A stretch of 64,000 nucleotides of DNA from Promethearchaeota archaeon (GTDB lineage: Archaea; Asgardarchaeota; Lokiarchaeia; Sigyniarchaeales; SOKP01). The position numbers and the translations under genes were made by a program. Of the stretch, positions 51,155-64,000 are shown in pieces. Each line of letters opens with the position of its first letter. The first letter of the stretch is position 1. The notes below the pieces were generated by a model. The model saw only the letters and a program-made list of their open reading frames with translations. It had not been told where the DNA came from and ran no database searches. Location: assembly GCA_016839555.1 (NCBI GenBank), contig JAEOUA010000011.1:32001-96000 (forward strand), written 5' to 3'.

Positions 51155-52291
51155 TTATTTCTCAATAATAGTTTCTTCAATAGCAGTACCAAAGTGAGTG
51201 GCTCCTGGCCCAATATGTACTAATACTTTATCTCCTTCTTTTAGATCTACAACAGATTTCGCATCCCCTTCTGGATCTACAAGACGAATAGTTTCCGCGT
51301 TTTGACAGATACAACTTATAGGAATTTTTTTCCCAGCTTGCTCCGATTGCATTTCAAATCTTAACATAGGACGAGTTTCGATTTTAACCCTTCCCACAGA
51401 CGCAATTCTAACTGCTCCTTTCGAATTTATCACTAAAACCTTATCTCCACCTTTTATTTCACTTAGGTACTTAGTTCTATATAATTCTTCTTTATTTCGA
51501 TCCTCTTCTGGTACTAATATATACGCAGATACATCTCCTGCATTTACCCGGAAAGGCCGCGAAGCTACAAATTGCGTCTCAAATACTTCTGCATGAATTA
51601 AAGCAAATCCTTTTGCGGTACTTCCCACTAACATTCCTTCCCCAGGTAAAAGTAATGAAGTAGTATCTACACAAACTCTATCACTCTCTGGGATGGCCTG
51701 AATATTTAGTATTTCTGCCTCTTTCAATTCAATCTTAAATCCGACTCCAATCAAATTCTTAAGTTCAATAATATCATTTGCCGTTTTGGGAGTAAATAAG
51801 ATTCCATCAACGCCAATTTCCAGGGTTTTCAGCATTAATTCCGCTTCCGCTAAATTTTCTACTTTGGCAATTAATTCCGTATCCTTTTTATGCATTTCTG
51901 CGATTAAATTCTCAAAAGGAATAATTTTCCAATCCGATGCGGATACTATTATAAAATTTAGTTTAGTATTATTGGATAATCTCTTAATTTCCAATTCATC
52001 TTCTTTAGATTTTAGTTCTTTATAATATCCTATACTTTTTTTGATATCTTTTTCCTCTAAAATTCGTTCTAATTCAGTAAGATCCTTATAAATAACATAA
52101 TCAACATCCAATTCAGAATTCCATCCGAAAGTTTTTACCCGTTCTATATTTTTAAATTCCGAAAGGGTATTATTTGATACAAGAAAATTTAAAATATCTC
52201 TATTAAATGCCTCTTGAACAAGTTCTTTAAAATCTTCTTCCTTTTTTTGAAAATTGAGTATAATTCTTTTCATTTTTGAATCATTTTTCAA
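51155..52291 (-). CDS. aroB': 3-dehydroquinate synthase II (AroB')
   Basis: DWKIIPFENLIA, DRVCVDT, RPFRVNAG, QNAETIRL and HFG..IEE.I.EK motifs. The start may be the ATG at 52273. Confidence 0.93.
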   Translation of the reverse strand: MKNDSKMKRIILNFQKKEEDFKELVQEAFNRDILNFLVSNNTLSEFKNIERVKTFGWNSELDVDYVIYKDLTELERILEEKDIKKSIGYYKELKSKEDELEIKRLSNNTKLNFIIVSASDWKIIPFENLIAEMHKKDTELIAKVENLAEAELMLKTLEIGVDGILFTPKTANDIIELKNLIGVGFKIELKEAEILNIQAIPESDRVCVDTTSLLLPGEGMLVGSTAKGFALIHAEVFETQFVASRPFRVNAGDVSAYILVPEEDRNKEELYRTKYLSEIKGGDKVLVINSKGAVRIASVGRVKIETRPMLRFEMQSEQAGKKIPISCICQNAETIRLVDPEGDAKSVVDLKEGDKVLVHIGPGATHFGTAIEETIIEK

Positions 52292-52392
52292 ATTCTAAAC
52301 TAGAAAAATATTTCTAATTTAAATAATCTTATATTCTCAAAATTTTACTTTCTTTTTTACTTTAGATCGAAGATTTTAAAACTTTTTAGAAA

Positions 52393-52410
52393 ATTTTTCT
52401 TTAAATATGA
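52393..52410 (+). promoter_or_regulatory. T-run + TATA promoter-like motif (copy 1)
   Basis: ATTTTTCTTTAAATATGA; TTTAAATA at 52400, 65 nt before ATG 52465. Confidence 0.55.
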
Positions 52411-52464
52411 TTGAAAAATGATTGTTATAACAAAATAGAAATATTAATTAAAAAGATAAAGAAA

Positions 52465-52824
52465 ATGGAAGAAATATATATAGTTGAGGGCAAAAGTCAA
52501 GGAAAAAAATATGCCAAATATATATTCTATGGTATAATCGCGTTTTTAGCCATATACATGCCTTTTTTTGGAAGTGATCTAAGATATCAATTAGGAGCAA
52601 TCTTCGATATGGCTTTCAATATAATTGGTTGGTTTTGCGTTTTTGGGGGTATAATTTATATCCTTTTGGGAGTTTTGGGGCTATTTGGAAGAAATATCTT
52701 AATCGGAAGAATCATTATAGGAGCATTATTACTGTGGGTTGGTTGTTGGATGACGGGAATTGCTATTAATTTTTTTGGGGTTGATTTCGGAGGTTCATCT
52801 GCTTCATCTAAAGGATATCATTAA
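52465..52824 (+). CDS. Small Gly-rich 3-TM membrane protein
   Basis: Three hydrophobic Gly-rich segments. ATG at 52465 preferred over TTG 52411. Confidence 0.7.
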   Translation: MEEIYIVEGKSQGKKYAKYIFYGIIAFLAIYMPFFGSDLRYQLGAIFDMAFNIIGWFCVFGGIIYILLGVLGLFGRNILIGRIIIGALLLWVGCWMTGIAINFFGVDFGGSSASSKGYH

Positions 52825-52891
52825 AAAAAAGAGGTTCGCCGAAAAAAATCCCGCTTTTTTATTATTAAGTTTCTTTATTATATGCTGTAAA

Positions 52892-54046
52892 TTATAGATT
52901 CTTTTCAATTGCATCTAATTCCTTTAAGATCCACTTCTTAAACTTAGCAAAATCAGAAACAGAAGGGATTTTACCCTTCTCAGAAGAATCTTTAGCTACA
53001 TTTCTCTGATTAAATATTTTTGTATTCGTTTTTTTGGATTTAGAATCAATTGTGCCTGATATTAATTCAGTTATTATCTTTTGAGGGATTTTTAATTTTG
53101 TTAAAATTTCTTCGAATTCTATATAATCGTTTTCTTGTAATTCATATTTTGTTTGGTTCATTTTTATCCATTCCTCTAAAAAATCTTTTGGAATACCCTC
53201 CTTCCAATGATGTTTTCTAAGATAATTATATAATAATTGGGGAGAGTATAGTTCACTTAGTTCTAAATTACTCTTATTAACATGTTTATCTTGATATTCA
53301 TGAAGCGATTGGATGAATTCTTCTCTCAGCTTTTTATTATGATTAGTAATAATATCAAATTCTCCGGAGAAATCAATAATTTTCTCAGGGGGCTTATAAA
53401 ATCTTTTTCTTTTTGTTAAAATGTCCTCAGGGAGGGTTATATTATAATAATTTTTAGTAAATTCTAAAATTTTAGGAAATTCATCTTCATCATAATTCTT
53501 TAGTATTTTTGATAAATTAATCGAGTCGGGATTCTTATTTAATTCTATATATAATTGATTAGCGGTGATCTTGATGTTTTGAAGGTTGTCTCGAAGAATC
53601 TCAATATTATCTGCCAATGAAATCAAGATTTGCTCAAATTTTAAGTCAACATTACTAAAATCATAATTAAGGAATTTATCCGTCTTTTTATTGTAAAAAA
53701 TATAGTGATTATTACTCTCTGACAACAAATTAGTTATATTCTGATTCACATTAAGGATACAATGCACATCCTTCAATTCTAATAGGTCTTTCGCCTTTTT
53801 TTTGTCTAAATTATAAATTAAATAGAAATTTGGAGTATGAATATCTGAATAAGAATCATTTAATATGACTTCTTTAAGGTCATAAAGGGCGGTAGATTCT
53901 AAATCAATTAAATTATAGCCAATAGTAAAGACTTCTAATCCTCTAAGATTTTTTAAATCTACATAGGGATAAATTACCAGATTTTTTTGTTGAAAAAATA
54001 ATAAATGCAGGAATTCCGGTTTAATGAAATCGAATGCTGTATCCAT
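52892..54046 (-). CDS. Hypothetical soluble protein
   Basis: 384 aa ORF with a GGGAGG SD; lies downstream of the GTPase on the same strand. Confidence 0.75.
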   Translation of the reverse strand: MDTAFDFIKPEFLHLLFFQQKNLVIYPYVDLKNLRGLEVFTIGYNLIDLESTALYDLKEVILNDSYSDIHTPNFYLIYNLDKKKAKDLLELKDVHCILNVNQNITNLLSESNNHYIFYNKKTDKFLNYDFSNVDLKFEQILISLADNIEILRDNLQNIKITANQLYIELNKNPDSINLSKILKNYDEDEFPKILEFTKNYYNITLPEDILTKRKRFYKPPEKIIDFSGEFDIITNHNKKLREEFIQSLHEYQDKHVNKSNLELSELYSPQLLYNYLRKHHWKEGIPKDFLEEWIKMNQTKYELQENDYIEFEEILTKLKIPQKIITELISGTIDSKSKKTNTKIFNQRNVAKDSSEKGKIPSVSDFAKFKKWILKELDAIEKNL

Positions 54047-54106
54047 TTGCCTCCCTTAATTGGTTGTTTAATTAATATTAGAATATATAAAAAGAACTTG
54101 AAATAA

Positions 54107-54775
54107 CTATTTGGAATTAAATACATTGAATAAAACTTGCCCTAATAAATCTCGAAAAGTTTCAGCAACATTCTTTCCTTTTAATGCAACAGTTCTATAC
54201 ACTACAAATGTTCCATCAGAATATTTCTCTTCTTGTGGTAATCCTAATTTCTTTTTAAACTCATCAATCTTAATTTTATTTTCTATATCTCTCTTATTAA
54301 GCTGAATAACATACGGAATTCTTCGCGGACTGGCGAAGCTGAGTAATTCACGAAAACTTCGTTTATTTTGTTCGAGCTTATCTTTCTCTGAATCTCCCAC
54401 AAATACGATTCCATCAGCTCCTTCCAAGACATATTCTCTAGTAGAAAGAAAACGCTCCTGACCCGTACAAGTGACGATATGAACAATAATAGTATAATCA
54501 ATACCATTCACGCTTGCTTCAAAAGATAGAAACATAGAATCCTGCCATAATGTTCTTCCATCTTCCGTTTCAATCGAATAGCCATCCGTAATACGATTAT
54601 GATCAAATTTCTCCTTCAACCTAAAAAAATTGGTAGTCTTTCCAGACTCTCCAGGACCCCAATACACAATTTTTAACTGAATAATATTTCCTAATAAAAT
54701 TCCTGTAGAATCTATAGATACTTCTGAACTTATATTTTCATTTTCTACGTGTTTTTTCATCATTAATAAAATCAC
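54107..54775 (-). CDS. MglA-like small GTPase
   Basis: KIVYWGPGESGKTTN; GRTL switch with Arg; TGQERF; GADGIVFV.DS; QLNKRD; VA..G..V motifs. Confidence 0.88.
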   Translation of the reverse strand: MILLMMKKHVENENISSEVSIDSTGILLGNIIQLKIVYWGPGESGKTTNFFRLKEKFDHNRITDGYSIETEDGRTLWQDSMFLSFEASVNGIDYTIIVHIVTCTGQERFLSTREYVLEGADGIVFVGDSEKDKLEQNKRSFRELLSFASPRRIPYVIQLNKRDIENKIKIDEFKKKLGLPQEEKYSDGTFVVYRTVALKGKNVAETFRDLLGQVLFNVFNSK

Positions 54776-54792
54776 CTTTAAGTATAGGCTTA

Positions 54793-55338
54793 TTAAATAG
54801 TACCTATTTTATCGCCGAATAATTGTTTTTTCAATGTCTTGATATGATCTTTTAATTCATCTTCATTCATTTTTAACACATTTTTAATAGGGATAGAATT
54901 TTCAATTTCTCTTTTTATTGCTGTCGCAAATCGTTGCATCTGTAGGATTAATACACCAATGTTTACATTATTATCAGTTAAAAGAACAATGAGGATTTGT
55001 CGCTTTCTTTCGTTTCCAATATTTACATCAATAATGGATTTGACAAATAATCGCATATTATTGTAAATTATAGTGGCTCGATCTAAGTAATCCGCCTCGA
55101 AAAAATCTTGCCCTTGTCGTGCAACTCCGTATAATGCTGCTCCCAAGGAAGAGAGGTTCCAATAATTCAATCCTTTATCAAACTGAGGATCCAATGCGAT
55201 TATTTTGGCATCTTGATCAACAGCAATTAATCCATAGATATAACCTTTCCGCGTAAGTTTACCATAGCTCATTCTGATTTCGCTCAGAATATCGCTAATC
55301 GTATTTTCATATAATACTTTCGGAATTGTTTCTGTCAT
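54793..55338 (-). CDS. Roadblock/LC7 (MglB-like) protein
   Basis: LIAVDQD..IIA, LSSLGAALYG, ILIVLLT..VNIG pattern with an extra C-terminal helix; directly upstream of the MglA-like gene. Confidence 0.75.
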   Translation of the reverse strand: MTETIPKVLYENTISDILSEIRMSYGKLTRKGYIYGLIAVDQDAKIIALDPQFDKGLNYWNLSSLGAALYGVARQGQDFFEADYLDRATIIYNNMRLFVKSIIDVNIGNERKRQILIVLLTDNNVNIGVLILQMQRFATAIKREIENSIPIKNVLKMNEDELKDHIKTLKKQLFGDKIGTI

Positions 55339-55380
55339 GTTCTCAACTCAAAACTTTTTTTGAAAGATATAAAAAATAAA

Positions 55381-55397
55381 TCTATATAAAGAAAAAG
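55381..55397 (-). promoter_or_regulatory. T-run + TATA promoter-like motif (copy 2)
   Basis: Minus strand CTTTTTCTTTATATAGA; TATA starts at 55390, 52 nt before ATG 55338. Confidence 0.55.
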
Positions 55398-55423
55398 TCG
55401 AAAATTATAATTTTTCATTTTTT

Positions 55424-55443
55424 GATTTTTTCCTTTAAATATA
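55424..55443 (+). promoter_or_regulatory. T-run + TATA promoter-like motif (copy 3)
   Basis: GATTTTTTCCTTTAAATATA; TATA at 55434, 63 nt before ATG 55497. Confidence 0.55.
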
Positions 55444-55496
55444 AATGAGAGATCAAAAGGGTATAATTTTTTAAAAACCAGTAAAATGGTGTTTAA

Positions 55497-56744
55497 ATGG
55501 TAGAAACAATTCCTACTGCATATATTCCAAAACAAAAAGTAATTTTAAGTGAAATTAATCCCCCATATGCACAAAATTTTATAAATCCATTCTTAGAATT
55601 CACTAATTTACATCTTTTTGAAGAATTCAAACTTGATGTAAATATTAGAAAGAAAATAAAAAATCGGAAAAACCCTACTTTAAAGTTGGCAGAACCTAAA
55701 CATGCTGAAACTATCGCTGAAATAGTAAAAGAAGACTATGAAGGGACATATCCTTATAAAGAGATGGAAGATCCTACTGAAATTAAAAAAATGATCAATT
55801 CAGGAAAATATAAATTTGTCTTATTTTTAAATGAAAAGAATGAAATTATGGGATCTACTTGTTTTGTTCTTAATTTAAAGGAAAAAAAAGGGTATCTACG
55901 GAGCCTAGTAGTGAGAAAAAAATCTCTTGGGATAGTTGATGCAACTAAAGCTTATGTTGGAAGTTGTTTGGCAATTTGGAATATGTTCAGAGATAAAATA
56001 TTAATTTGGTGGGGTGAAGCACGTACCGCAGATGCAAAATCCCAATATATCAATCGTTTATGTAGCGTTCGACCAATAGCATTTTTACCGAATAAGGATA
56101 TCTTTTATAATAAAATAGAATCAGATTTAGTAATGATTTCTTATGATGAGCGCGTTTTCAGAGAATTTCATAGCAAAAAAAGGCCTAGAATTATCCCTTG
56201 TGTTGCTGGATGCTTTTATTTCTCTAATATGCAATATGACTTAACTATACCCGAAATTATCTTTCCAAAGCTTAAAAAGGAAATGAATCCCTCAAAATTA
56301 ATAAAATTATTCAAAAATCTGAAAGTTCAAAAAACCGTGGATAAATTCAATTACATCACTTATAGATTTACTCTAAAAAACTCTAAATCTTATTTTAAAT
56401 TCTTATTTACACCTCGAGTTAACAATTTTGAGAAAACAGAATATAAAGTGAAGAATTTAGAGGAGTTATTTGTTTTTTTGCAGAAATTTAAAAAAATGGC
56501 GAGAAAACTGGATATTAGATATATGGAAGCGCTTGTTTCGGCTTATGAACCTTCCCATCAAATATTATTTAGAGATTTAGGATTAATTCCACGAGGCTAT
56601 ATCCCTGCATTTCAATATAATAAAAAAAAGAATCATTTTGAAGATTCAATTCTGTTTAATTATTATACAGGAACTCTTTCATATGAACCCGAATTAATTC
56701 CTGAGGGTAAGCAATTGTTAAAATTCTTAAATTTAAAGTTTTGA
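55497..56744 (+). CDS. Tandem GNAT-fold protein
   Basis: LKLAEP.HA..IA.I...Y..TYPY, GYLRSLVVR, GEART...SQ, and a second unit ending LGLIPRGYIP. Confidence 0.6.
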   Translation: MVETIPTAYIPKQKVILSEINPPYAQNFINPFLEFTNLHLFEEFKLDVNIRKKIKNRKNPTLKLAEPKHAETIAEIVKEDYEGTYPYKEMEDPTEIKKMINSGKYKFVLFLNEKNEIMGSTCFVLNLKEKKGYLRSLVVRKKSLGIVDATKAYVGSCLAIWNMFRDKILIWWGEARTADAKSQYINRLCSVRPIAFLPNKDIFYNKIESDLVMISYDERVFREFHSKKRPRIIPCVAGCFYFSNMQYDLTIPEIIFPKLKKEMNPSKLIKLFKNLKVQKTVDKFNYITYRFTLKNSKSYFKFLFTPRVNNFEKTEYKVKNLEELFVFLQKFKKMARKLDIRYMEALVSAYEPSHQILFRDLGLIPRGYIPAFQYNKKKNHFEDSILFNYYTGTLSYEPELIPEGKQLLKFLNLKF

Positions 56745-56798
56745 TAAAACTTTATCGTCATCTTTTTAATTTTTAATATATTTTAAAATTTTTTTTTG

Positions 56799-56820
56799 GA
56801 TTTTTTCTTTAAATATGAAT
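56799..56820 (+). promoter_or_regulatory. T-run + TATA promoter-like motif (copy 4)
   Basis: GATTTTTTCTTTAAATATGAAT; TATA at 56808, 38 nt before ATG 56846. Confidence 0.55.
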
Positions 56821-56845
56821 AAAAAAAATATATGATAGAATTATT

Positions 56846-57256
56846 ATGACCCTCTTTAAAATAAATTATAGGTTGAGATCTATAAAAGATCCATTTAATT
56901 ATAGAGAAATAATCGAAAACATAGTATTAGACGAAAATACAGGTAAAGTCTTTTTAAAAGAATTCAAAAAAATTTTAAAAAACTTAGAATCTTTAAAAAT
57001 TGATAATAATATTAAAATTAAAAAACTGAAATATTTCCTGAAATCCTATAAATTAAAAGACATCAGTAATGAAACAAAAGAAATAATTATTAAGGCTCAT
57101 AGAAATATCGAAAATAAAAAAGGAGCTCTTAAGATTATAACAAATTTCAATTCAGATTTAAATCATATATCTAATAAAGATATATTTGATAAAGATTCAG
57201 AATTAAACTTTGATTCAAAAAGAATCCCTCTATTAATACCAGAAAAAATGCATTAA
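56846..57256 (+). CDS. Hypothetical Lys-rich protein
   Basis: 136 aa ORF with no recognisable motif. Confidence 0.55.
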   Translation: MTLFKINYRLRSIKDPFNYREIIENIVLDENTGKVFLKEFKKILKNLESLKIDNNIKIKKLKYFLKSYKLKDISNETKEIIIKAHRNIENKKGALKIITNFNSDLNHISNKDIFDKDSELNFDSKRIPLLIPEKMH

Positions 57257-57513
57257 AAATATAGATATGATTTTTTTATTTTTATCTAATTTTTAACTAA
57301 TTTCTATAATAATTATAGAAAATTCTTTTTCTATATTTTGATTAAATTATGATAAAATTAATTTAAGATCTGAATTTAATGAAAAATTAGATTAAATATT
57401 TAATTTATAGCATAATTTATAAAGAAAGGACTTTAAAAACTTCTTTTGAAAATAAATTTAAAATAGAAAAAATTTTTAAAAAATTATAAATAATTAATAA
57501 GAAGTGATTTTAT

Positions 57514-58338
57514 TTGAATAAAAAAGAAAAATATTTAATTGGTATAATTTCACCAACGATTATTGGTTTAATAATAACTCTTATTCTTTTTATTGCCAAT
57601 TTAGACCCAATAATTAAAACCATTAATGCATATGAAGGAACTTGGATTATAATAGTAATAATAATAATAAGAATAATTTTATTAGCCGGAATGAGTGCAT
57701 ATATGTTTAAGCAATGGTTTAACCAAGAGCATCAATATTTATCAGATATTCCTTTTTTATTTGCACTATTCTTTTTACTTGTAATCTTCGGAAAATCTTT
57801 TGACTTACTTTATAATCTGACATATTATTTTACTGATAGATTCACTTTTTTGATAATACTAAAGGTTCGTTTCTTAATAGGAGCATTAAGTCTTTCCCCT
57901 ATGTATTATCTGAGCATAGGAATGATATTGTTTTTCTTGTCTCTTTATGAAAAATATAAGAAACTAGATGATAAGAAAGTTTCAAACCAAATCCAATTAA
58001 TTACTCTATCAATTATAATTCTTTTGATATCAGCGCTAATTATAATTTTTTTAGATGATGAAACTAATAAGATAATTTTACCTGCAATAGTAATCCCATC
58101 ATTCTTAACCATTGTTTTGATATTTTACTTCGCTTATAAAAACAAAAGATTGTCGCAAGTAAATCCCTTAATTCTGGCAATTGGATTTTCTGCATATTTA
58201 ATTTCTCAAATAATTAGACCAATTTTTCAAATAATTTTTGGAAATGAGGTGCCATTCATCTTTTTTTCAGAATTACTAGACCTGATTATCTATTTTGTTA
58301 TTTTTATTGGTTTAATAAAAAAAATAGAATATGATTAA
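57514..58338 (+). CDS. Polytopic (7-8 TM) membrane protein
   Basis: Alternating hydrophobic segments; no catalytic domain recognised. Confidence 0.7.
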   Translation: MNKKEKYLIGIISPTIIGLIITLILFIANLDPIIKTINAYEGTWIIIVIIIIRIILLAGMSAYMFKQWFNQEHQYLSDIPFLFALFFLLVIFGKSFDLLYNLTYYFTDRFTFLIILKVRFLIGALSLSPMYYLSIGMILFFLSLYEKYKKLDDKKVSNQIQLITLSIIILLISALIIIFLDDETNKIILPAIVIPSFLTIVLIFYFAYKNKRLSQVNPLILAIGFSAYLISQIIRPIFQIIFGNEVPFIFFSELLDLIIYFVIFIGLIKKIEYD

Positions 58339-58400
58339 AAATTAAATCTAAATATAATAATTTTTATTTAGTAATTTTTTATCATTTGTTAATCAATAAT

Positions 58401-59567
58401 TTAATTTCTAATTCTTTTTTGTAAAACAATATGTTTTCTAATTGGTTTTGAATGGGGAAAAATAGTTTTAATTGCTTTATCATTATTGGACCATATGGTA
58501 GTACCTTCCACATAGGTAATTCCATTCAATCCTGTGATAATTCTTCCAATATTATTTAATGCTGAGAATATACCTCTCCCAGCGTATTCTTTTCGTATCA
58601 TAACCGTATCAACATTTGCATCTATCAGAGGTAAGTTTTGCCAGATCTGATATAAATTCGGTAAAGACCATATAAATCCCACTATTTCTCCGGTTTTGCT
58701 ATCGAACGCAAAAGGAGCCCATGTTACCACTTTTTCTAAATCGCAAGATTTCATAGATTTAATAAAAATTGGGTTATCGGTATAGTCTTGAGGATTAAAA
58801 TCTTTGGGAAGCTTGTAATGTGAGGGAGGCACCATTTCATATAAGTGAAAGAATTCTTCAAGTCGCTTCTCCCCTCCTGATGCGTCTGCAAGTATCGTAT
58901 GAAAAGTATGCTGTGCCATTTCCATCATCTCTTCTTTTCGATCTCTCATTTCTGATATAGTAAGGTATTTTATTTCGATATCCCTTAGGTATCTATCACC
59001 TTTTTTCCACTTATCTTGGGTAACATAAACACAGGTATACTTTGACTCAATTTTATATCCTAATCTCTTTAAATAGTTTAATTCCTTCAAATCGGGATGA
59101 TTATATGCTACACCAGACATCATTTTATGCTTAAATCCTTCGGTCTGAAATCCGATTCCTCCAATTATTTTCGGAAAATTGATTGGTCCCCGAATTTTTC
59201 TGATATGATGCTCTTTAATGTAGCGTTCACAATTTTCTATTAATATTCTACAAGATGTGAAATCTAAGGCATTAAGCCAGCCAAATGTTCCGCATTTTCT
59301 TCCATAACTTTTATATTCTGTATCTATTTGACAAACTACGATTCCCGTTATTTTTTTTCCTTTTTTTGTAATAAATACTTTAATTTTGTAATCTTCTTCA
59401 TTAAATTTCTTTTGTAAATAATTAAGAAGATGAAAAATTACTTTTTTTTTTAATTTGTCCATTGGTACATAGAGTAATTCTTTGAAAGCACATCGTATTT
59501 GGCTAATATTTTTAGTATCAAAAACCTTAATAGAATAACTGATTTCTTCAACTATTTGTTGTGTCAT
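58401..59567 (-). CDS. Tandem GNAT protein, YghO/bacterial ceramide synthase-like family
   Basis: GTFGW, IRGPINF...G...EGF......YNHP...L..LGY, IVGFIWSLPNL, EYAGRGI and TIWSNN motifs. Confidence 0.65.
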   Translation of the reverse strand: MTQQIVEEISYSIKVFDTKNISQIRCAFKELLYVPMDKLKKKVIFHLLNYLQKKFNEEDYKIKVFITKKGKKITGIVVCQIDTEYKSYGRKCGTFGWLNALDFTSCRILIENCERYIKEHHIRKIRGPINFPKIIGGIGFQTEGFKHKMMSGVAYNHPDLKELNYLKRLGYKIESKYTCVYVTQDKWKKGDRYLRDIEIKYLTISEMRDRKEEMMEMAQHTFHTILADASGGEKRLEEFFHLYEMVPPSHYKLPKDFNPQDYTDNPIFIKSMKSCDLEKVVTWAPFAFDSKTGEIVGFIWSLPNLYQIWQNLPLIDANVDTVMIRKEYAGRGIFSALNNIGRIITGLNGITYVEGTTIWSNNDKAIKTIFPHSKPIRKHIVLQKRIRN

Positions 59568-59611
59568 TTAAAATCATTTTATATTTTATAAATTTGGAGA
59601 AAAAATTTTAC

Positions 59612-59633
59612 ATTCATATTTAAAGAAAAAATT
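59612..59633 (-). promoter_or_regulatory. T-run + TATA promoter-like motif (copy 5)
   Basis: Minus strand AATTTTTTCTTTAAATATGAAT, with 21 nt identical to copy 4; 57 nt before ATG 59567. Confidence 0.6.
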
Positions 59634-59696
59634 TTAAAAATTTTTTATTTAAAAAAGAGTAAAAATTTGGAAAAATAGACAAAAATCATTATTTCA

Positions 59697-59716
59697 GATT
59701 TTTTCTTTAAATATAC
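59697..59716 (+). promoter_or_regulatory. T-run + TATA promoter-like motif (copy 6)
   Basis: GATTTTTTCTTTAAATATAC; TATA at 59706, 54 nt before ATG 59760. Confidence 0.6.
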
Positions 59717-59759
59717 TTAAGAATAAAAACCATAAAAATAATAATATTAAGATAGGATT

Positions 59760-60914
59760 ATGAGAGAAATTAATCATTTCTGTCAAAATTGCATTTTACC
59801 AAATGGATTTCTGGATATTATATTGAATGAGGAAAGAATATGCAATTTTTGTAGAGATCCTCATTATAAAAATTCTAATTGGTCTAAAACACAACCCACA
59901 GCAAAATTAAGAGACTTTGCAATCCAAAATTGGCAAAGAACGATTCAAAATGTAAGAAATAAAAATATTGGTAAAAAATATGATTGTGTTTTAGGATATT
60001 CGGGAGGAAAAGACTCCACTGCATTATTAGATATGCTTATTAATGAGCTCGATTTGAAACCGCTGGCAATTACGGTTGATACAGGACAGTTAACACAAAT
60101 AGCTAAAGAAAACATAAAGAAAACCCTTAATACTTTACATTATTCTGCTCATCATCTTTTTATTGAAAGGGCAAAAAAAACTTTTTCTAAATTATATGAA
60201 TACCTTTTTCTAAATCATCATTCCAATGAAAAAATCCTAACAGGAAAGATATGTGATTATTGTTCTGATCTTATTCATTCCTTACTTACTAAAGAAGCCA
60301 TGAAAAGGAGTATACCTCTTGTTATTCTTGGTTACTCCCCTGATCAGATAAAAAGATATTTTTATGAAATCCCGAAAAGTGAAATTAAAAATCAATGGTA
60401 CCCTAATTTTATTCTAAAAACTCCATTTACCGATGACGATCGAGAATTTTTTCTTAATGTAAAGGATATTGATGATGATAGGGTCCCAAGAATCTTACTA
60501 CCTTATCATGTTATTTCCTATAAAGAAGATAAAATTATAGAAAAAGTCAATTCGAGAAATTTAATTGAGAAAGGAAAAGCTGATCCAATATTAACAAATT
60601 GCCATGTAGTAAAAGCTGCATTAATGTATGATCTTTATCGATATGGAGGTTTATCATATGCTCTACAATATGCTGAATTAGTAAGACAGGAATCTAATGA
60701 AGAGAGACGAAAAAAATCTCGTAAAAAATGGTTAAGATTATATAAAAATGTAGCAAAATCAATATTGCAAGGAAACTTTGATAAAAAAGGAATAGAGAAC
60801 TTTTTTAATCAGATTAATATTTCTAAAACTGAATTAATTCAAGTGATTAGAAATCAATTAGAAAAAGACCCAAATAAAGACTTGATTTTAGAGAATATCA
60901 ATTTGCTCAAATAA
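59760..60914 (+). CDS. PP-loop (adenine nucleotide alpha-hydrolase) protein, N-acetyl-sugar amidotransferase/WbpG-like
   Basis: CQNCILP..CNFC, YDCVLGYSGGKDS, CDYC and TNC motifs. Confidence 0.8.
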   Translation: MREINHFCQNCILPNGFLDIILNEERICNFCRDPHYKNSNWSKTQPTAKLRDFAIQNWQRTIQNVRNKNIGKKYDCVLGYSGGKDSTALLDMLINELDLKPLAITVDTGQLTQIAKENIKKTLNTLHYSAHHLFIERAKKTFSKLYEYLFLNHHSNEKILTGKICDYCSDLIHSLLTKEAMKRSIPLVILGYSPDQIKRYFYEIPKSEIKNQWYPNFILKTPFTDDDREFFLNVKDIDDDRVPRILLPYHVISYKEDKIIEKVNSRNLIEKGKADPILTNCHVVKAALMYDLYRYGGLSYALQYAELVRQESNEERRKKSRKKWLRLYKNVAKSILQGNFDKKGIENFFNQINISKTELIQVIRNQLEKDPNKDLILENINLLK

Positions 60915-60984
60915 AAAATTTGTCTTCTCTATTTATATTACTTCAAATTTTTCAAATTTAGACATTTTTAAGAAATTTAAAAAC

Positions 60985-61701
60985 TCAAATTCTATCTTCA
61001 ATGGCAGTATTAAAAATTCTTTTCAAATCCTTATTGTAATATTTATTCTTTTTCCAATCTTGTTCGGTTAAAAAGAATTTTCCAAAGGGATTCAAGGTTT
61101 TTTCTTCACCGATGGTAGTTATACCGAGATGTCCTGCTAATATTAGAAAATTCTCCGAAAGTAAGGGATTATAGATAATTTTATTTTTAATATTACTAAA
61201 TAAAAGCTCTTGGTCTCCACCCAGAAGATTTGATCGTCCTATACTTCTTCTAAATATGAGATCTCCTGTAAAGATGATACCATCATAATTATTCCCCCTA
61301 AAAGTTCGAATATCATTAGAGTAAAGGCTAATTCCGCCCGGACTGTGTCCAGCTGTTTCTAAAACAGTTAATTTAAAATCTTTATTTCTTAGAACATCTC
61401 CTTCTTTTAACCATTGATCAGCTTTTTTAAAAATAATATGTTGAAATGCATGTTTATTGTAGAGAAGCGGGATATCAAAATAATTTTTAAGAAATTTATA
61501 TGCTCCAGTATGATCCGGATGTGCATGAGTCAGGATAATACCTATCGGGTGCGCATTTAAATCATCAATTGTTTTTATAATGAGATCTTCTTCGGCTCCA
61601 GGGTCTATTATGTATATCTCATTAGTATTTTTCGAACCAACTAAATAGCAATTACAACCATATGAGCCAACAATTAATTTTTCAAGAATATAGTGGGCCA
61701 T
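60985..61701 (-). CDS. MBL-fold metallo-hydrolase (glyoxalase II-like)
   Basis: NCYLV, IDPG, THAHPDH, GHSPG, FTGD and GH motifs. Confidence 0.9.
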   Translation of the reverse strand: MAHYILEKLIVGSYGCNCYLVGSKNTNEIYIIDPGAEEDLIIKTIDDLNAHPIGIILTHAHPDHTGAYKFLKNYFDIPLLYNKHAFQHIIFKKADQWLKEGDVLRNKDFKLTVLETAGHSPGGISLYSNDIRTFRGNNYDGIIFTGDLIFRRSIGRSNLLGGDQELLFSNIKNKIIYNPLLSENFLILAGHLGITTIGEEKTLNPFGKFFLTEQDWKKNKYYNKDLKRIFNTAIEDRI

Positions 61702-61750
61702 TAGTTATACTTATGATCTTTCTAATTAAATAAAATAAAGAATAAATATA

Positions 61751-62695
61751 TTATAATATTTCTAAGATTGATTTTTTGGTAAAATGAATTTCTTTTTGGT
61801 TTGAATATTCATTTTCTTTTATAAAAACATTGAGAAGCTTTACAGCCATTCCTTTTTCGATTATCTTTAAAATATCAATTGCTTTCATATCCCATACATT
61901 TACTTCGATTGAACCTGTTTTGTCAGTTAATCCTAATTTTAGAAGAAACGATTTTTCACCATTATTTTTTGTAAATTCCTTTAATTCATAGCCGTTGATA
62001 AAGCCTGACGCAGATGTGATAAATCCGTCTGTCTTTAACAAATCCTTTATTTTTAGACTTACATTCTTCTTATTTTTATGTTGATATTGATATTCTGAGA
62101 GATCTAAATTCTCAATATTAACATCTTTAAGTTGGGAGCTAATCTTTTTAGGGATATCATCTGGCTCTAGAATAATTTTACTTTTTTTAGAAACATGGAC
62201 TTCAATTTTTTCATTTAATCCTATTTTTGAGTATCCATTGATAATACGTATGATTTTTCCTTTTGAAAAGAAATCTGATTTCATAATTTTGGATGGTTCA
62301 TTCCATAAAACAATTTTTATCATTCCAGTTGCATCAGCAAGTAAGAATGAACCCATAATTCCAGGAGTACCATCTTTTCTTACAAATTCTTTCAATGGAA
62401 ATATATCAATAATTTTTCCTAGTAGGACAAGATTCGTCATATTTTCTTTGATTTCAGCAATATCTATTAAAAACTCATTATAGTCAATTTCTTGTCCAAT
62501 TTCTTCATAAACCTCTTGATCTATATCAGGGGAAAGGATTTGGATTCCGTTTTCTTTAGCTATCAAAAATAATGCTCCTTGTTTGGTAATAAATCCGTGA
62601 AACTCTCGTTCTTTTTTTTCTATTTCTTCTTTTAACTCTTCTTCTGAAAAACCAATCTTTAATAAATAGTTATATACCTCTTGAATCTCGCTCAT
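61751..62695 (-). CDS. RPA-like ssDNA-binding protein (N-terminal helical domain + two OB folds)
   Basis: G.I...GALFLIAKE.G N-terminus; KEFVRKDG..G...LADATG.I..VLWN; KEF...G...LTDKTGSI.V.VWD. Confidence 0.85.
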   Translation of the reverse strand: MSEIQEVYNYLLKIGFSEEELKEEIEKKEREFHGFITKQGALFLIAKENGIQILSPDIDQEVYEEIGQEIDYNEFLIDIAEIKENMTNLVLLGKIIDIFPLKEFVRKDGTPGIMGSFLLADATGMIKIVLWNEPSKIMKSDFFSKGKIIRIINGYSKIGLNEKIEVHVSKKSKIILEPDDIPKKISSQLKDVNIENLDLSEYQYQHKNKKNVSLKIKDLLKTDGFITSASGFINGYELKEFTKNNGEKSFLLKLGLTDKTGSIEVNVWDMKAIDILKIIEKGMAVKLLNVFIKENEYSNQKEIHFTKKSILEIL

Positions 62696-63296
62696 TCTTA
62701 CTCAATACCCCTGTTTCAATCATTTTATTTTTAGTCTTATAAAAAGCATATGCGGAACAATTAGTAATAGCTCGAATATTTTCTACCAGGATTTTATTTT
62801 TGAAATGTGAATCATTTAAGTCTGTTATATATAATGTAAGTGCTAATTGGGTAGAGATTGTTGGCCAAAAATTTGCTTTAGTGAAAAAAACATGAAGGGA
62901 ATTGAGATTGATTTTAGCTCGATTATAATTAAAAAGCGGAGCAATCTTGTAAATCTTATGAAGATATACTTTCAATTTGTTATATAATAATGGTTTTCTA
63001 TGTTCCCAAGGAAATTTATATGATTTCAAAAAAGATGCATAAAAATACAAATTTCTAAGTGTTTTATTAATAATATTAGAAGTTAAAGGTTGGGAAATAG
63101 ATACTTTTTCTGAAATAGTAATTATTTTTTGAATTGGTAATGTTGATAATATATTTAAACTGCCTCGTGGAAAACAAATAGAGAAGTTTCTAAATAATAC
63201 ATTTAGAATGTTAGTTCTAATTTCTTTAAGACATAAATTATAGCTTAAAGGATTTGCAGTTTTATCTTTAAATATAACTGTAAAAGTATTTGCCAT
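62670..63296 (-). CDS. Hypothetical protein with a C-terminal TFB/cyclin-fold-like repeat
   Basis: P..STQLALTLYI.......ENIRAITNCSAYAFYK..NKM resembles the TFB repeat pattern P..AAAALYIA...Q.EIA....TEVTIRNRYKEL. Overlaps the RPA-like gene by 26 nt. Confidence 0.5.
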   Translation of the reverse strand: MANTFTVIFKDKTANPLSYNLCLKEIRTNILNVLFRNFSICFPRGSLNILSTLPIQKIITISEKVSISQPLTSNIINKTLRNLYFYASFLKSYKFPWEHRKPLLYNKLKVYLHKIYKIAPLFNYNRAKINLNSLHVFFTKANFWPTISTQLALTLYITDLNDSHFKNKILVENIRAITNCSAYAFYKTKNKMIETGVLSKNERDSRGI

Positions 63297-63343
63297 TTTT
63301 CATTTTATCTTTTTTTTAGATTCTTAAAAGAGAATCTATTGAC

Positions 63344-63362
63344 TCTATTTAAATAAAAAATG
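63344..63362 (-). promoter_or_regulatory. T-run + TATA promoter-like motif (variant copy 7)
   Basis: Minus strand CATTTTTTATTTAAATAGA; TATA starts at 63353, 57 nt before ATG 63296. The T-run could also be the FEN1 terminator. Confidence 0.4.
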
Positions 63363-63402
63363 AAATTAAAAATGGACTCCGTGGTGAATTTTTAAAACTA
63401 TT

Positions 63403-63999
63403 TTAAAAGATCATATCTAAGGTCTTTTGGATAGTTTTTGGACGGTTTAATTCATATTGAAAATATTTTAAGGCGTTATAAAAGTTAGAAATCAAAATTT
63501 CGGTGTTCTTAGAAACTCTTTCCTTGTTTAAATTATGCTCTTTACATAATAAATAGAAGAGGCGCCTCTTATCAGGGGGATTCCAAAATATATCTTTGTC
63601 AAAAAAATCTAAGACTTCGGGTAAGAGAAATAATTTCCGAATTTTTAAAATTATTTTAGCATCAAGCTGAGAAAAATTATACTCGTCTTTTTTATGTTTA
63701 ATAATATTTTCCACATTTTCATATTGCTTTATTAGTTTCAATGCCGTCTTAGGACCAATATTTTTAATTCCTTCGAAGTAATCGGTTTTTAACAAAATTG
63801 CTAAATCAACTAGTTGAAATTGGTTTATATCCATTGTGGTTAAATTTTGCTGGAGATCAATAGCTAATGGGGTAATCTTCTGATATATCCATCGTCCCTG
63901 AATCTTCCTTCGCAAAGATTTTGAAAGGTTTTGTAATAGTTGAGGGCATCCGAACAATAAAGAATCAAAATCTTGGGAGTTGGAATAATCAGCAAAATT
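63403..63999 (-). CDS. fen1: Flap endonuclease 1 family protein (C-terminal part; runs off window end)
   Basis: SQDFDSLLFG.P.L..NL, LVDLAIL..TDY, GIKNIGPKTALKLI, and C-terminal PIP-like QKTLDMIF. Confidence 0.85.
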   Translation of the reverse strand, partial: NFADYSNSQDFDSLLFGCPQLLQNLSKSLRRKIQGRWIYQKITPLAIDLQQNLTTMDINQFQLVDLAILLKTDYFEGIKNIGPKTALKLIKQYENVENIIKHKKDEYNFSQLDAKIILKIRKLFLLPEVLDFFDKDIFWNPPDKRRLFYLLCKEHNLNKERVSKNTEILISNFYNALKYFQYELNRPKTIQKTLDMIF

Positions 64000-64000
64000 G

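Follow-up and report, generated by a model that had tools for sequence, protein, structure and literature searches.

A T-tract promoter class in a conserved gene island of Asgard archaea, with a divergent TFB as its candidate reader

Canonical archaeal BRE-TATA promoters, which are read by TBP and TFB (P. woesei, PDB 1D3U), have an 8-bp TTTAWATA TATA box and a purine start site at a fixed distance from it; direction is set by a further element of 6-8 bp that adjoins the box on its upstream side. In strong BREs, A is found at -3 and A or G at -6 (PMC5817253). In Sulfolobales, a short non-palindromic T-rich element ending in C, the DDRE (5'-A(N)TTTC-3'), marks a DNA-damage regulon; it lies upstream of a weak BRE (-44 to -39) and is bound by Orc1-2, and the damage-induced programme also involves the TFB paralog TFB3, a co-activator without the DNA-binding cyclin core (PMC5817253, PMC6061795). 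TFB2 of S. acidocaldarius, a full-length paralog, serves a division-phase regulon whose promoters are like those of TFB1 and differ in spacing only (bioRxiv 10.64898/2026.09.06.749720). Its targets are scattered over the genome, unlike those of the island described below. The TFB and TBP families of haloarchaea have reportedly expanded, and their paralogs are said to partition regulons; unlike the island TFB, these paralogs keep canonical recognition helices, and we know of no distinct BRE sequence code tied to any of them.

The stretch of DNA analysed here (64,000 nt, called the window) has the same 8-bp TATA box at a set of promoters in its last part, preceded directly by a run of T. The element consists of (A/G)A-T5-6-C fused to the consensus TATA box TTTAAATA, and its spacing is exact to the base: T5-6, then one or two non-T bases, with C favoured, then TATA. 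Judging from the sequence, the T-tract fills the position of the purine-rich BRE, and it differs from a canonical BRE in having T at both -3 and -6. A scan of the whole window for TTTTT-N0-2-TTTAWATA gave nine matches at seven distinct sites, none upstream of 52 kb: 52394-52407(+), 55383-55396(-), 55427-55441(+), 56801-56815(+), 59617-59631(-), 59699-59713(+) and 63346-63360(-). The original prediction was accurate on the layout: T5-6-(C/CC/A)-TTTAWATA occurs at exactly these seven places in the window and at no others, five of them in divergent intergenic regions, and each copy is oriented toward an ATG 38-65 nt off (65, 52, 63, 38, 57, 54 and 57 nt, counted from the first T of TATA). Because the other two copies sit in co-directional intergenic regions (56.8 kb, +; 63.3 kb, -), the orientation of the motif, with the T-run upstream, is fixed.

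Could such an element arise by chance in a genome of 29% GC? A reversed-sequence control did give 20 PWM hits of at least 17 bits, against 56 for the real sequence. Dinucleotide-preserving shuffles of the window sequence (n=100), however, gave 1.46 +/- 1.40 matches against the nine observed, with 0/100 reaching nine, so that the motif is not AT-rich background. The orientation and the ATG distance are consistent from site to site, the A at +29 is invariant, the clustering has a Poisson P of 1e-13, and the element is conserved across genera. These statistics, together with the conservation in other genomes, refute a chance origin, to which we attach next to no probability.

The first promoter (52393-52407, +; ATTTTTC-TTTAAATA, TATA 52400-52407, predicted TSS A 52429) precedes a 119-aa membrane protein gene (52465-52824, +), and a copy of the element also stands 81 nt before the paralog of this gene, C7:151983-152366 (61% identity). 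Promoter 2 (55383-55398, -; CTTTTTC-TTTATATA, predicted TSS 55361) stands back to back with promoter 3 (55424-55441, +; TTTTTTCC-TTTAAATA, predicted TSS 55463). The operon of promoter 2 comprises a 181-aa gene (54793-55338, -), a small Arf/Ras-like GTPase gene (54107-54775, -) and, as a probable third member, a 384-aa gene (52892-54046, -); orthologous operons in G013 and G014 (60-68% identity) retain the T-run TATA. A near-variant that falls short of the strict pattern (54084-54097, -; GTTCTTTTT-ATATA) lies 45 nt before the third gene, and is possibly an internal promoter of the GTPase operon. Promoter 3 faces a 415-aa GNAT-like gene (55497-56744, +), which is followed by promoter 4 (56799-56815, +; GATTTTTTC-TTTAAATA, co-directional, predicted TSS 56837) and a 136-aa gene (56846-57256, +) whose paralog, 43% identical and located at C11:137029-137355, is likewise preceded by the element at a distance of 38 nt. 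Copies 4 and 5 have the 21-mer ATTTTTTCTTTAAATATGAAT in common, as had been noticed.

Promoters 5 (59617-59633, -; AATTTTTTC-TTTAAATA, predicted TSS 59595) and 6 (59697-59713, +; GATTTTTTC-TTTAAATA, predicted TSS 59735) are divergent partners. The former precedes a 388-aa gene (58401-59567, -), and its element is retained at the G006, G013 and G016 orthologs. The latter precedes a gene for a 384-aa PP-loop, WbuX-like N-acetyl-sugar amidotransferase (59760-60914, +; TIGR03573, E 3.8e-28, below the model cut-off), and is retained at the G013 ortholog. Promoter 7 (63346-63362, -; CATTTTTTA-TTTAAATA, co-directional, predicted TSS 63324) heads an operon of a 208-aa gene (62670-63296, -), an RPA-like OB-fold gene (61751-62695, -) and a metallo-beta-lactamase-fold gene (60985-61701, -); the RPA-like ortholog in G014 also has a T-run TATA upstream.

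The seven copies are the left end of a larger cluster. The 3.74-Mb genome has 134 T-run + TATA sites (0.36 per 10 kb), with 16 copies at C11:84.4-116.2 kb, extending 20 kb beyond the window end (1.14 expected, Poisson P 1.3e-13), and 11 at C7:146.5-169 kb (P 1.2e-9). The corresponding gene islands are one on contig C11 (84.3 to ~124 kb, about C11:123.8 kb), the left part of which occupies window positions 52292-64000 after the 3-dehydroquinate synthase II gene (51155-52291, -) on its left flank, and a second, partly paralogous one on C7. Gene calls beyond the window come from a crude in-house ORF caller. The size of seven genes proposed for the regulon was too small: the C11 island has at least 16 transcription units over ~32 kb, and the C7 island comes in addition. 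Within the window, a T-run accompanies 0/8 promoter-position TTTAWATA boxes in the first 52.3 kb and 7/9 in the last 11.7 kb. The two islands pooled have it at 18/20 well-placed TATA boxes, against 19/487 elsewhere, which marks a distinct class that is rare at other promoters, though part of this contrast is circular, the motif having served to set the island limits.

Independent support for the class comes from the conservation of the motif in other genomes. At 9/11 orthologs of the 415-aa gene from several genera (40-56% identity), the T-run is retained together with TTTAAATA and an A at +29. Mean conservation in this footprint is 0.91 at -9 to +7 and about 0.5 in the flanks; values are 89-100% for the T-run positions -7 to -3 and 89% and 100% for the T and A at +28 and +29, while the 100% of the TATA itself is due to anchoring. 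This A, the predicted TSS, counted 29 nt from where the TATA begins, is found at 16/16 sites of the C11 island, at 8/10 of the C7 island, and at 30/40 sites in relatives, compared with 40% of other TTTAWATA promoters; a constant spacing between the TATA and a purine start is a feature shared with canonical promoters. The T-run + TATA is confirmed as a genuine, positioned and oriented promoter class.

A T-tract may also act without any dedicated reader, as a rigid poly(dA:dT) tract that excludes histones from the promoter, by stopping read-through from adjacent units, or by strengthening TBP binding in a closely packed, AT-rich island. Histones are present according to the original prediction, oligo-T is an archaeal termination signal, 7/16 island copies are co-directional and lie 55-100 nt past an upstream stop codon, and GC in the window is lower inside the island (0.23-0.30) than outside it (0.28-0.36). 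This explanation is nonetheless improbable in our estimation: 5/7 window copies lie in divergent regions, where there is no upstream gene to terminate, the spacing is exact to the base with C preferred, the reversed arrangement of the motif is without enrichment, and the element is nearly missing at other promoters, in a genome that is itself AT-rich, and survives gene shuffling in other genera.

A candidate reader is encoded in the C11 island 8.6 kb beyond the window end (C11:104594-105847), as a 417-aa protein with a Zn ribbon and two cyclin folds. The genome resembles those of haloarchaea in its many TFB paralogs: 10 are canonical and four highly divergent, one divergent copy lying in each island and further paralogs in two more duplicated cassettes. 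The 417-aa protein matches the NCBIfam TFIIB model PRK00423 (E 2.6e-6), and a profile of 15 homologs finds the P. woesei TFB core among PDB sequences (1d3u_B, 1ais_B; E 7e-5). In hhalign its alignment with the canonical TFBs of this genome begins at the Zn ribbon and extends to the last helix (probability 98.6%, E 5e-16). Its AlphaFold model (pLDDT 82-91 over residues 100-310) has TFIIB, TFB and Brf as top Foldseek matches and superposes on 1d3u_B with a TM of 0.74 (rmsd 3.9 A over 207 columns). Profiles and model together indicate that the protein is a TFB. It differs from canonical TFBs in the BRE-recognition helix, which reads MS(S/T)IQSQVKR instead of the TEVTxRxR invariant in 10/10 canonical copies; in the hhalign alignment, TEVT-x-R-x-R falls on (Q/R)MS(S/T)IQSQ. 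The residues aligned to the Val and Arg of TFIIB, which we take from the 1D3U/1C9B literature to contact the BRE, are absent.

Our preferred reading, to which we give about an even chance, is that the T-tract class is the private promoter of the island, read by the island's own divergent TFB. TBP would bind the TATA box in the normal way, and the 417-aa protein, rather than a housekeeping TFB, would then read the T-tract through the rewritten recognition helix of its C-terminal helix-turn-helix. The gene for the divergent TFB has a different promoter of its own, a TATA with a conserved AAACTCCTWCC, and its trigger would therefore switch on the whole island, and the island genes would be co-expressed. 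An alternative TFB had been predicted, and a candidate with a rewritten BRE helix is present in each island, but it is not the gene then named. The 208-aa gene of the RPA operon, described as TFB-like, has no Pfam match, and hhalign with either TFB profile gives it a probability of 0.1%; the gene for the candidate reader is found beyond the window. Of the earlier interpretation as a whole, the promoter class, its conservation at orthologs and an alternative-TFB candidate survive, the TFB-like gene and the seven-gene size do not, and a stress or developmental programme stands as a proposal.

The distribution of the divergent TFB is consistent with such a pairing. In G000 (the genome analysed here, both islands), G008, G013 and G014 the island contains the gene for this TFB, and in G007, G012 and G016 the gene is within a few kb of T-run sites or of genes of the island; T-run sites are ~6-fold denser within 1.5 kb of divergent-TFB homologs (24 in 105 kb). 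The family occurs in 13/18 genomes of the same family and, weakly, in 1/12 from other families. Two near-complete relatives, G009 (97%) and G010 (99%), are without the divergent TFB, the 415-aa gene and T-run clustering, all together. Taken with the promoter and protein evidence above, this makes a sigma-factor-like role of the divergent TFB plausible. Such co-location and co-occurrence amount to few independent events, since the genomes are related. Other observations count against reading by the island's own TFB: about half of the genome's promoter-position T-run sites lie outside both islands; G002 and G011 (fragmented, 90-93% complete) have small T-run clusters, and the divergent TFB was not found in them; in other families, a T-run with longer spacers sometimes precedes TTTAAATA at distant homologs of the 415-aa gene, in genomes where a clear divergent TFB was not detected; and a search of this 92% complete assembly turned up no TBP gene.

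Alternatively, the tract may be the site of a dedicated non-TFB regulator, an activator or repressor at the BRE position, with initiation by a housekeeping TFB. Candidates would be the Zn-finger proteins of the island or, by analogy with Sulfolobales, a protein of the Orc1/Cdc6 type. The Sulfolobales 5'-A(N)TTTC-3' of the Orc1-2-bound DNA-damage regulon resembles ATTTTT(T)C (PMC5817253, PMC6061795), and both elements are found at the promoters of a dedicated regulon that has DNA-transaction and membrane proteins and includes a TFB paralog. G000 has four Orc1/Cdc6 paralogs, one of them adjoining the C7 island (C7:174.2-175.5 kb), and the island is rich in recombination/repair paralogs and encodes small Cys-rich/Zn-finger proteins of 125, 138 and 177 aa, which are other possible DNA binders. 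We still consider this rather unlikely. In Sulfolobales the element stands farther out, before the BRE, whereas the island tract takes the place of the BRE itself, next to the TATA; a regulator there would compete with any TFB and be awkward as an activator; and conservation within the island is shown for the divergent TFB but for no such regulator. Orc1-2 binding and DNA-damage induction are established for the DDRE, while the island is known from its sequence.

If the divergent TFB does read the T-tract, it would be an island-encoded initiation factor with private promoters in an Asgard archaeon, like a bacterial alternative sigma factor. It retains both cyclin folds, unlike TFB3, and like TFB2 would be a full-length paralog with a specific promoter set in a sigma-like split among TFBs, here as a prediction; what sets it apart from TFB2 is a changed BRE sequence at its predicted promoters and a rewritten recognition helix. 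The likeness to ECF-type sigma factors, which belong to an unrelated protein family with a different promoter architecture, is a functional analogy only: the initiation-factor paralog is encoded beside its regulon, is predicted to read a private promoter, and has its own gene on a different one.

The island is conserved but optional in one family of Loki-type Asgard archaea, and we found no published description of it or of its promoter module. It holds spare recombination/repair genes, the small-GTPase module and sugar/acyl-modifying enzymes, the most recognisable genes being RadA-like, RadB-like, Hef-like, Hel308-like, RPA and a FEN1 paralog. Its gene set is clustered in G006, G008, G013, G014 and G016, in shuffled order and orientation, and the units still bear the element, with few copies outside the island parts. 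If the island were of mobile origin, as an integrated element or a domesticated plasmid or virus that brought along replication and recombination genes, a TFB and promoters, the motif would be element-specific and not a host programme. Such an origin would account for the duplication of functions that the host already has (paralogs of FEN1, RadA, Hef and Hel308, 29-42% identical to other copies), the many genes without a Pfam family, the lower GC, the absence of the island from G009 and G010, and the two partly paralogous islands and two duplicated cassettes in one genome. No integrase, capsid or conjugation genes were seen among the genes scanned, however, and no tRNA in C11:96-136 kb or C7:140-175 kb; we regard a mobile origin as very improbable. 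The 40-60% protein divergence between genera and the internal shuffling resemble long vertical residence, and a mobile element would change the origin of the island and not the mechanism, so that the pairing of TFB and promoter would stand.

A pattern search of the 64-kb window for T5-N0-2-TTTAWATA recovers seven distinct sites, all within 52.39-63.36 kb, and these are the seven copies of the original prediction, each where it had been placed. Each site consists of a run of five or six Ts (the T-run), then C, CC or A, and then a TATA box, which is TTTAAATA or TTTATATA in all seven. Comparison of the sequence with the ORF list confirms that every copy is oriented toward an ATG at a distance of 38-65 nt, measured from the start of the TATA box, and that five copies lie in divergent intergenic regions, with two back-to-back pairs. 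The fourth and fifth copies do share an identical stretch, ATTTTTTCTTTAAATATGAAT. The element is also more frequent than expected of AT-rich sequence: nine overlapping matches are found vs 1.46 +/- 1.40 in dinucleotide-preserving shuffles, and none of 100 shuffles reached nine. Within the window, a T-run accompanies none of the eight promoter-position TTTAWATA boxes before 52.3 kb vs seven of the nine after. The copies at 56.8 kb (+) and 63.3 kb (-) are in co-directional intergenic regions and thus fix the polarity of the element, the T-run being 5' of the TATA box.

The seven sites are real, but as a set they are only the edge of a larger cluster. The genome (G000; 3.74 Mb in 12 contigs, 29-30% GC, 92% complete) has 134 T-run sites, or 0.36 per 10 kb, and these are strongly clustered. 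On contig C11, of which the window is positions 32001-96000, 16 sites fall within 84.4-116.2 kb vs 1.14 expected (Poisson P 1.3e-13), and a further two are at 137.4 and 144.0 kb; on contig C7, 11 fall within 146.5-169 kb (Poisson P 1.2e-9). The two clusters mark a conserved gene island that starts at about 52.3 kb in the window and extends past its end (the C11 island), and a second, partly paralogous one (the C7 island). Among TTTAWATA boxes in promoter position, 18 of 20 in the two islands together have a T-run vs 19 of 487 elsewhere, a contrast that depends on crude gene calls (3411 genes from our own caller, crude outside the window) and is partly circular because the motif itself delimited the islands. 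At 19 of 487, the T-run is rare at other promoters. Scanning with a position weight matrix of the island sites gives 56 matches of at least 17 bits vs 20 in reversed sequence, and the well-placed ones are mostly in the islands.

The consensus of the 16 C11 sites is (A/G)A-TTTTTT-C-TTTAAATA, with weak conservation beyond it on the 5' side. The purine-rich BRE (A at -3 and A/G at -6, counted from the TATA start) is absent; T occupies -7 to -2, and -1 is mostly C. Other TTTAWATA promoters of the genome have a mild A bias 5' of the TATA box (A 0.51 at -3, 0.47 at -7) and no other dominant k-mer in that region. On the 3' side, A is found at +29 from the first T of the TATA box in all 16 C11-island sites, 8 of 10 C7 sites and 30 of 40 T-run sites in relatives, and in 40% of other TTTAWATA promoters; an enrichment of A is likewise seen at +18. 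The gene-oriented consensus TTTAWATA is that of an archaeal core-promoter TATA box, and the A at +29 has the expected TATA-to-initiator spacing. It is the predicted transcription start site, which would give the seven window genes 5' UTRs of 9-36 nt. In window coordinates, the predicted starts are 52429, 55463, 56837 and 59735 (plus strand) and 55361, 59595 and 63324 (minus strand). We consider it very probable that the T-run element defines a genuine class of promoter specific to the islands.

A purely structural or terminator role for the T-tract does not fit its divergent contexts, base-exact spacing, preferred C and restriction to the islands. An archaeal oligo-T intrinsic terminator would place the T-run 3' of a co-directional stop codon, which is not the arrangement found: 9 of the 16 C11-island copies, like five of the seven in the window, are in divergent intergenic regions. 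For the co-directional copies, a secondary terminator role is possible. Segmental duplication was also considered as the origin of the shared promoters and rejected, the seven window genes being mutually unrelated and the few island genes with paralogs having them mostly in the other island.

Within the window, the C11 island encodes a 119-aa membrane protein, an operon with an Arf/Ras-like small GTPase, a 415-aa GNAT-like protein (window 55497-56744), a WbuX-like PP-loop amidotransferase, proteins of 388 and 136 aa with no known identity, and an operon for a 208-aa protein, an RPA-like protein and a metallo-beta-lactamase-fold protein; the gene of a FEN1 paralog extends off the right end. The 208-aa protein had been described as TFB-like, a claim we could not sustain: it belongs to no Pfam family, and its hhalign probability against canonical and divergent TFB profiles is 0.1% (as a single-sequence query, of limited sensitivity). 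Past the window end are genes for a RadA-like recombinase with a C-terminal HhH domain (C11:99233-100387, minus strand; L001:3233-4387 in the numbering of a C11 stretch), a RadB/KaiC-like ATPase, Hef-like and Hel308-like helicases, an alpha/beta hydrolase and a 988-aa protein with a prenyltransferase-type toroid, and a four-gene operon for proteins without known identity, one of 1287 aa. The repair genes of the island are second copies, with paralogs elsewhere in the genome at 29-42% identity. The recombinase scores above the NCBIfam RadA cut-off yet lacks an N-terminal HhH, HHH_5 being at its C-terminus; two other RadA-type genes are at C2:42041 and C3:49766.

The C11 and C7 islands have paralogs in common (119-aa protein, 61% identity; toroid protein, 72%; the divergent TFB discussed below, 67%), and the T-run promoter is retained at paralogs in the two islands. 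The C7 island additionally encodes giant proteins without known identity, a Roadblock-domain protein, a GTPase, and TPR and LRR proteins. No tRNA genes were found in C11:96-136 kb, which takes in part of the C11 island, or in C7:140-175 kb, which takes in the C7 island. The island may have originated from a mobile element, which would leave the mechanism considered here unchanged. No gene is called for 300 nt to the left or right of a back-to-back T-run pair at C11:97088(-)/97138(+) (in L001:797-1500 = C11:96797-97500), and the site at C11:113033(-) faces a gap of 500 nt; at such gene-free sites, island promoters may drive small proteins or non-coding RNAs.

Conservation at orthologous promoters, a check the original prediction had called for, was found across genera. 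Orthologs of the 415-aa gene are present in 11 genomes of the same family (protein identity 40-56%), which are related and not independent samples. The T-run with TTTAAATA is kept before the gene in nine of this 11-genome set, and several also keep the back-to-back divergent partner. When these promoters are anchored on the TATA box, the T-run positions are 89-100% conserved and the TA at +28/+29 is 89% and 100% conserved, vs about 50% in the flanks, the level of AT-rich background. A tblastn search of island proteins against 184 kb from five relatives finds the gene set clustered in other genera, with order and orientation shuffled. T-run TATA boxes still precede transcription units in the five relatives' islands, and there are hardly any in the non-island parts of the 184 kb. 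Many same-family genomes have more copies of the strict 14-mer than of its reversed control (e.g., 26 vs 3, 38 vs 10), an excess not seen in three other families of the order.

The C11 island also encodes, 8.6 kb past the window end, a 417-aa protein (C11:104594-105847) that, judged from its sequence and structural model, is a full-length, highly divergent TFB. Residues 14-190 match TFIIB weakly in NCBIfam (E 2.6e-6), and the Pfam TFIIB repeat PF00382 does not detect the protein. The cysteines of a Zn ribbon (C19, C22, C36, and C39) are invariant in an alignment of 15 homologs (A1), the match to Pfam Zn_Ribbon_TF being below cut-off (E 1e-3). The A1 profile finds the Pyrococcus woesei TFB core and the human TFIIB core in the PDB (E 7e-5), and the AlphaFold model has two cyclin folds of five helices each (pLDDT 82-91). 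Its top Foldseek matches are TFIIB, TFB and Brf only, with 1d3u_B matched over the whole core (TM 0.74, rmsd 3.9 A). Against the canonical TFBs of the genome, hhalign aligns the protein from the ribbon to the last helix (probability 98.6%, E 5e-16). The canonical BRE-recognition helix TEVT-x-R-x-R is replaced by (Q/R)MS(S/T)IQSQVKR, with TEVTLRSR aligning to (Q/R)MS(S/T)IQSQ; M274 and S275 are invariant across the family in A1. The assignment of BRE-contacting residues in the helix follows the structural literature. A C-terminal extension of about 100 aa terminates in KGPP.

The genome has four divergent TFB genes besides ten canonical ones. A changed recognition helix among the latter was rejected as the reader of the T-run: all ten keep TEVT[IL]R.R apart from minor changes in two, a final R being L in one copy, and the order-wide TFB expansion does not track the motif. 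The Pfam TBP model has no match in this 92%-complete assembly.

The divergent TFB family is found in 13 of 18 same-family genomes and, weakly, in 1 of 12 genomes of other families. Its gene is inside the island in relatives G008, G013 and G014, and a few kb from island genes or T-run sites in G007, G012 and G016; the sequence within 1.5 kb of its homologs shows an approximately six-fold excess of T-run sites. The divergent TFB, the 415-aa gene and T-run clustering are all missing from G009 (97% complete) and G010 (99%). G002 and G011, both fragmented, have small T-run clusters, and no divergent TFB was found in them. In other families, the matches to the A1 profile (in G019, G021, G024, G026 and G027) are all weak and of canonical length, with no island in the regions of G026 examined. 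In G030, also of another family, a weak 423-aa homolog lies beside a 1244-aa homolog of the 1287-aa island protein (C108:1-16217, L095). Promoters there have T7 before ATTATATA or AGAATATA, not TTTAAATA (few sites), and the locus could represent the same system in diverged form.

The promoter of the divergent TFB gene itself is not of the T-run type. TTTAAAA-N3-5-AAACTCCTWCC-N8-12-CTTAG precedes the gene in at least 10 genomes, as read in G000 (L037:1390-1500 = C11:104483-104593) and in stretches L039, L041, L042, L043, L047, L049, L052, L053 and L054. In G000, AACTCCTWCY occurs only twice 5' of a gene, both times preceding divergent TFB paralogs. AAACTCCTWCC, which follows the TATA box of this promoter, is a candidate operator for a signal that switches the island on. 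A divergent TFB paralog, a 117-aa protein and a 74-aa soluble protein form a cassette present in duplicate (C1:138793-142526 and C11:276996-281545). The 74-aa genes, including a third at C11:18765-19051, have a 30-nt promoter sequence in common, TTTAGTATTTAAGGRATTTTTRTTTAAATA; in this variant of the T-run element, the TATA box is preceded by G or A.

The best-supported reading is that the island has a private core-promoter class and encodes the TFB that reads it, in the manner of an alternative sigma factor; we put its chances at about even. The main rival is a dedicated binder of the T-tract other than a TFB. The Sulfolobales DNA-damage element A(N)TTTC, which is bound by Orc1-2 with TFB3 as co-activator (PMC5817253, PMC6061795), offers a precedent of similar sequence and regulon theme, and an Orc1/Cdc6 paralog adjoins the C7 island. 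This gene (C7:174238-175461, minus strand), one of four such paralogs in G000, is separated by some 5 kb from the end of that island and is of interest because Orc1-2 binds the similar Sulfolobales element. Position distinguishes the two elements, however: the Sulfolobales element is 5' of the BRE, at -44 to -39 from the start site, whereas the island ATTTTT(T)C, at about -37 to -30, abuts the TATA box with no BRE between and so occupies the place of the BRE. A TFB as reader has a stronger form, in which the island TFB and the T-tract constitute an orthogonal initiation system in an archaeal cell, a true sigma-factor-like pairing. The rewritten TFB helix would then read the rewritten BRE, and the spare recombination, GTPase and surface genes, 30-40 kb in all, would be switched as a single unit. 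This stronger form we hold tentatively, at somewhat short of even chances.

Sigma-like reading of different promoter sequences by archaeal TFB paralogs has been debated since the haloarchaeal TFB expansions, and the haloarchaeal families show that TFB paralogs can own regulons. To our knowledge, neither Sulfolobus TFB2 and TFB3 nor the haloarchaeal TFBs have been tied to a distinct BRE sequence. Ownership of a regulon by a TFB paralog is also exemplified by Sulfolobus TFB3 and by Sulfolobus TFB2 (bioRxiv 10.64898/2026.09.06.749720). A non-exhaustive literature search turned up neither a T-rich BRE class nor the divergent TFB in Asgard archaea. In the present case, a distinct element in BRE position is physically linked to a TFB whose reading helix has changed, the two are conserved jointly, and the pair is simple to test, with two proteins, two promoters and one helix swap. 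If the pairing is true, a 'BRE code' would for the first time be defined by sequence for a TFB paralog, and the gene-class-specific TFIIB relatives of eukaryotes (Brf, Rrn7/TAF1B) would have a prokaryotic precedent in the closest archaeal relatives of eukaryotes. The Asgard setting is of special interest for how eukaryotes came by several TFIIB-family factors and how cyclin-fold regulators arose. Under the proposed reading, the spare recombination and repair genes would all be deployed together, pointing to a stress or life-cycle response not yet studied in these organisms.

Outside the islands, four T-run sites are grouped at C3:119.8-121.8 kb, with no called gene near on their 3' side. ATTAAACCnAnATATCTTTTTCTTTAAATAG occurs there at C3:120208-120238 and again 118 kb away at C3:2050-2080, and the group and the duplicated sequence may represent a repeated element or uncalled small genes.
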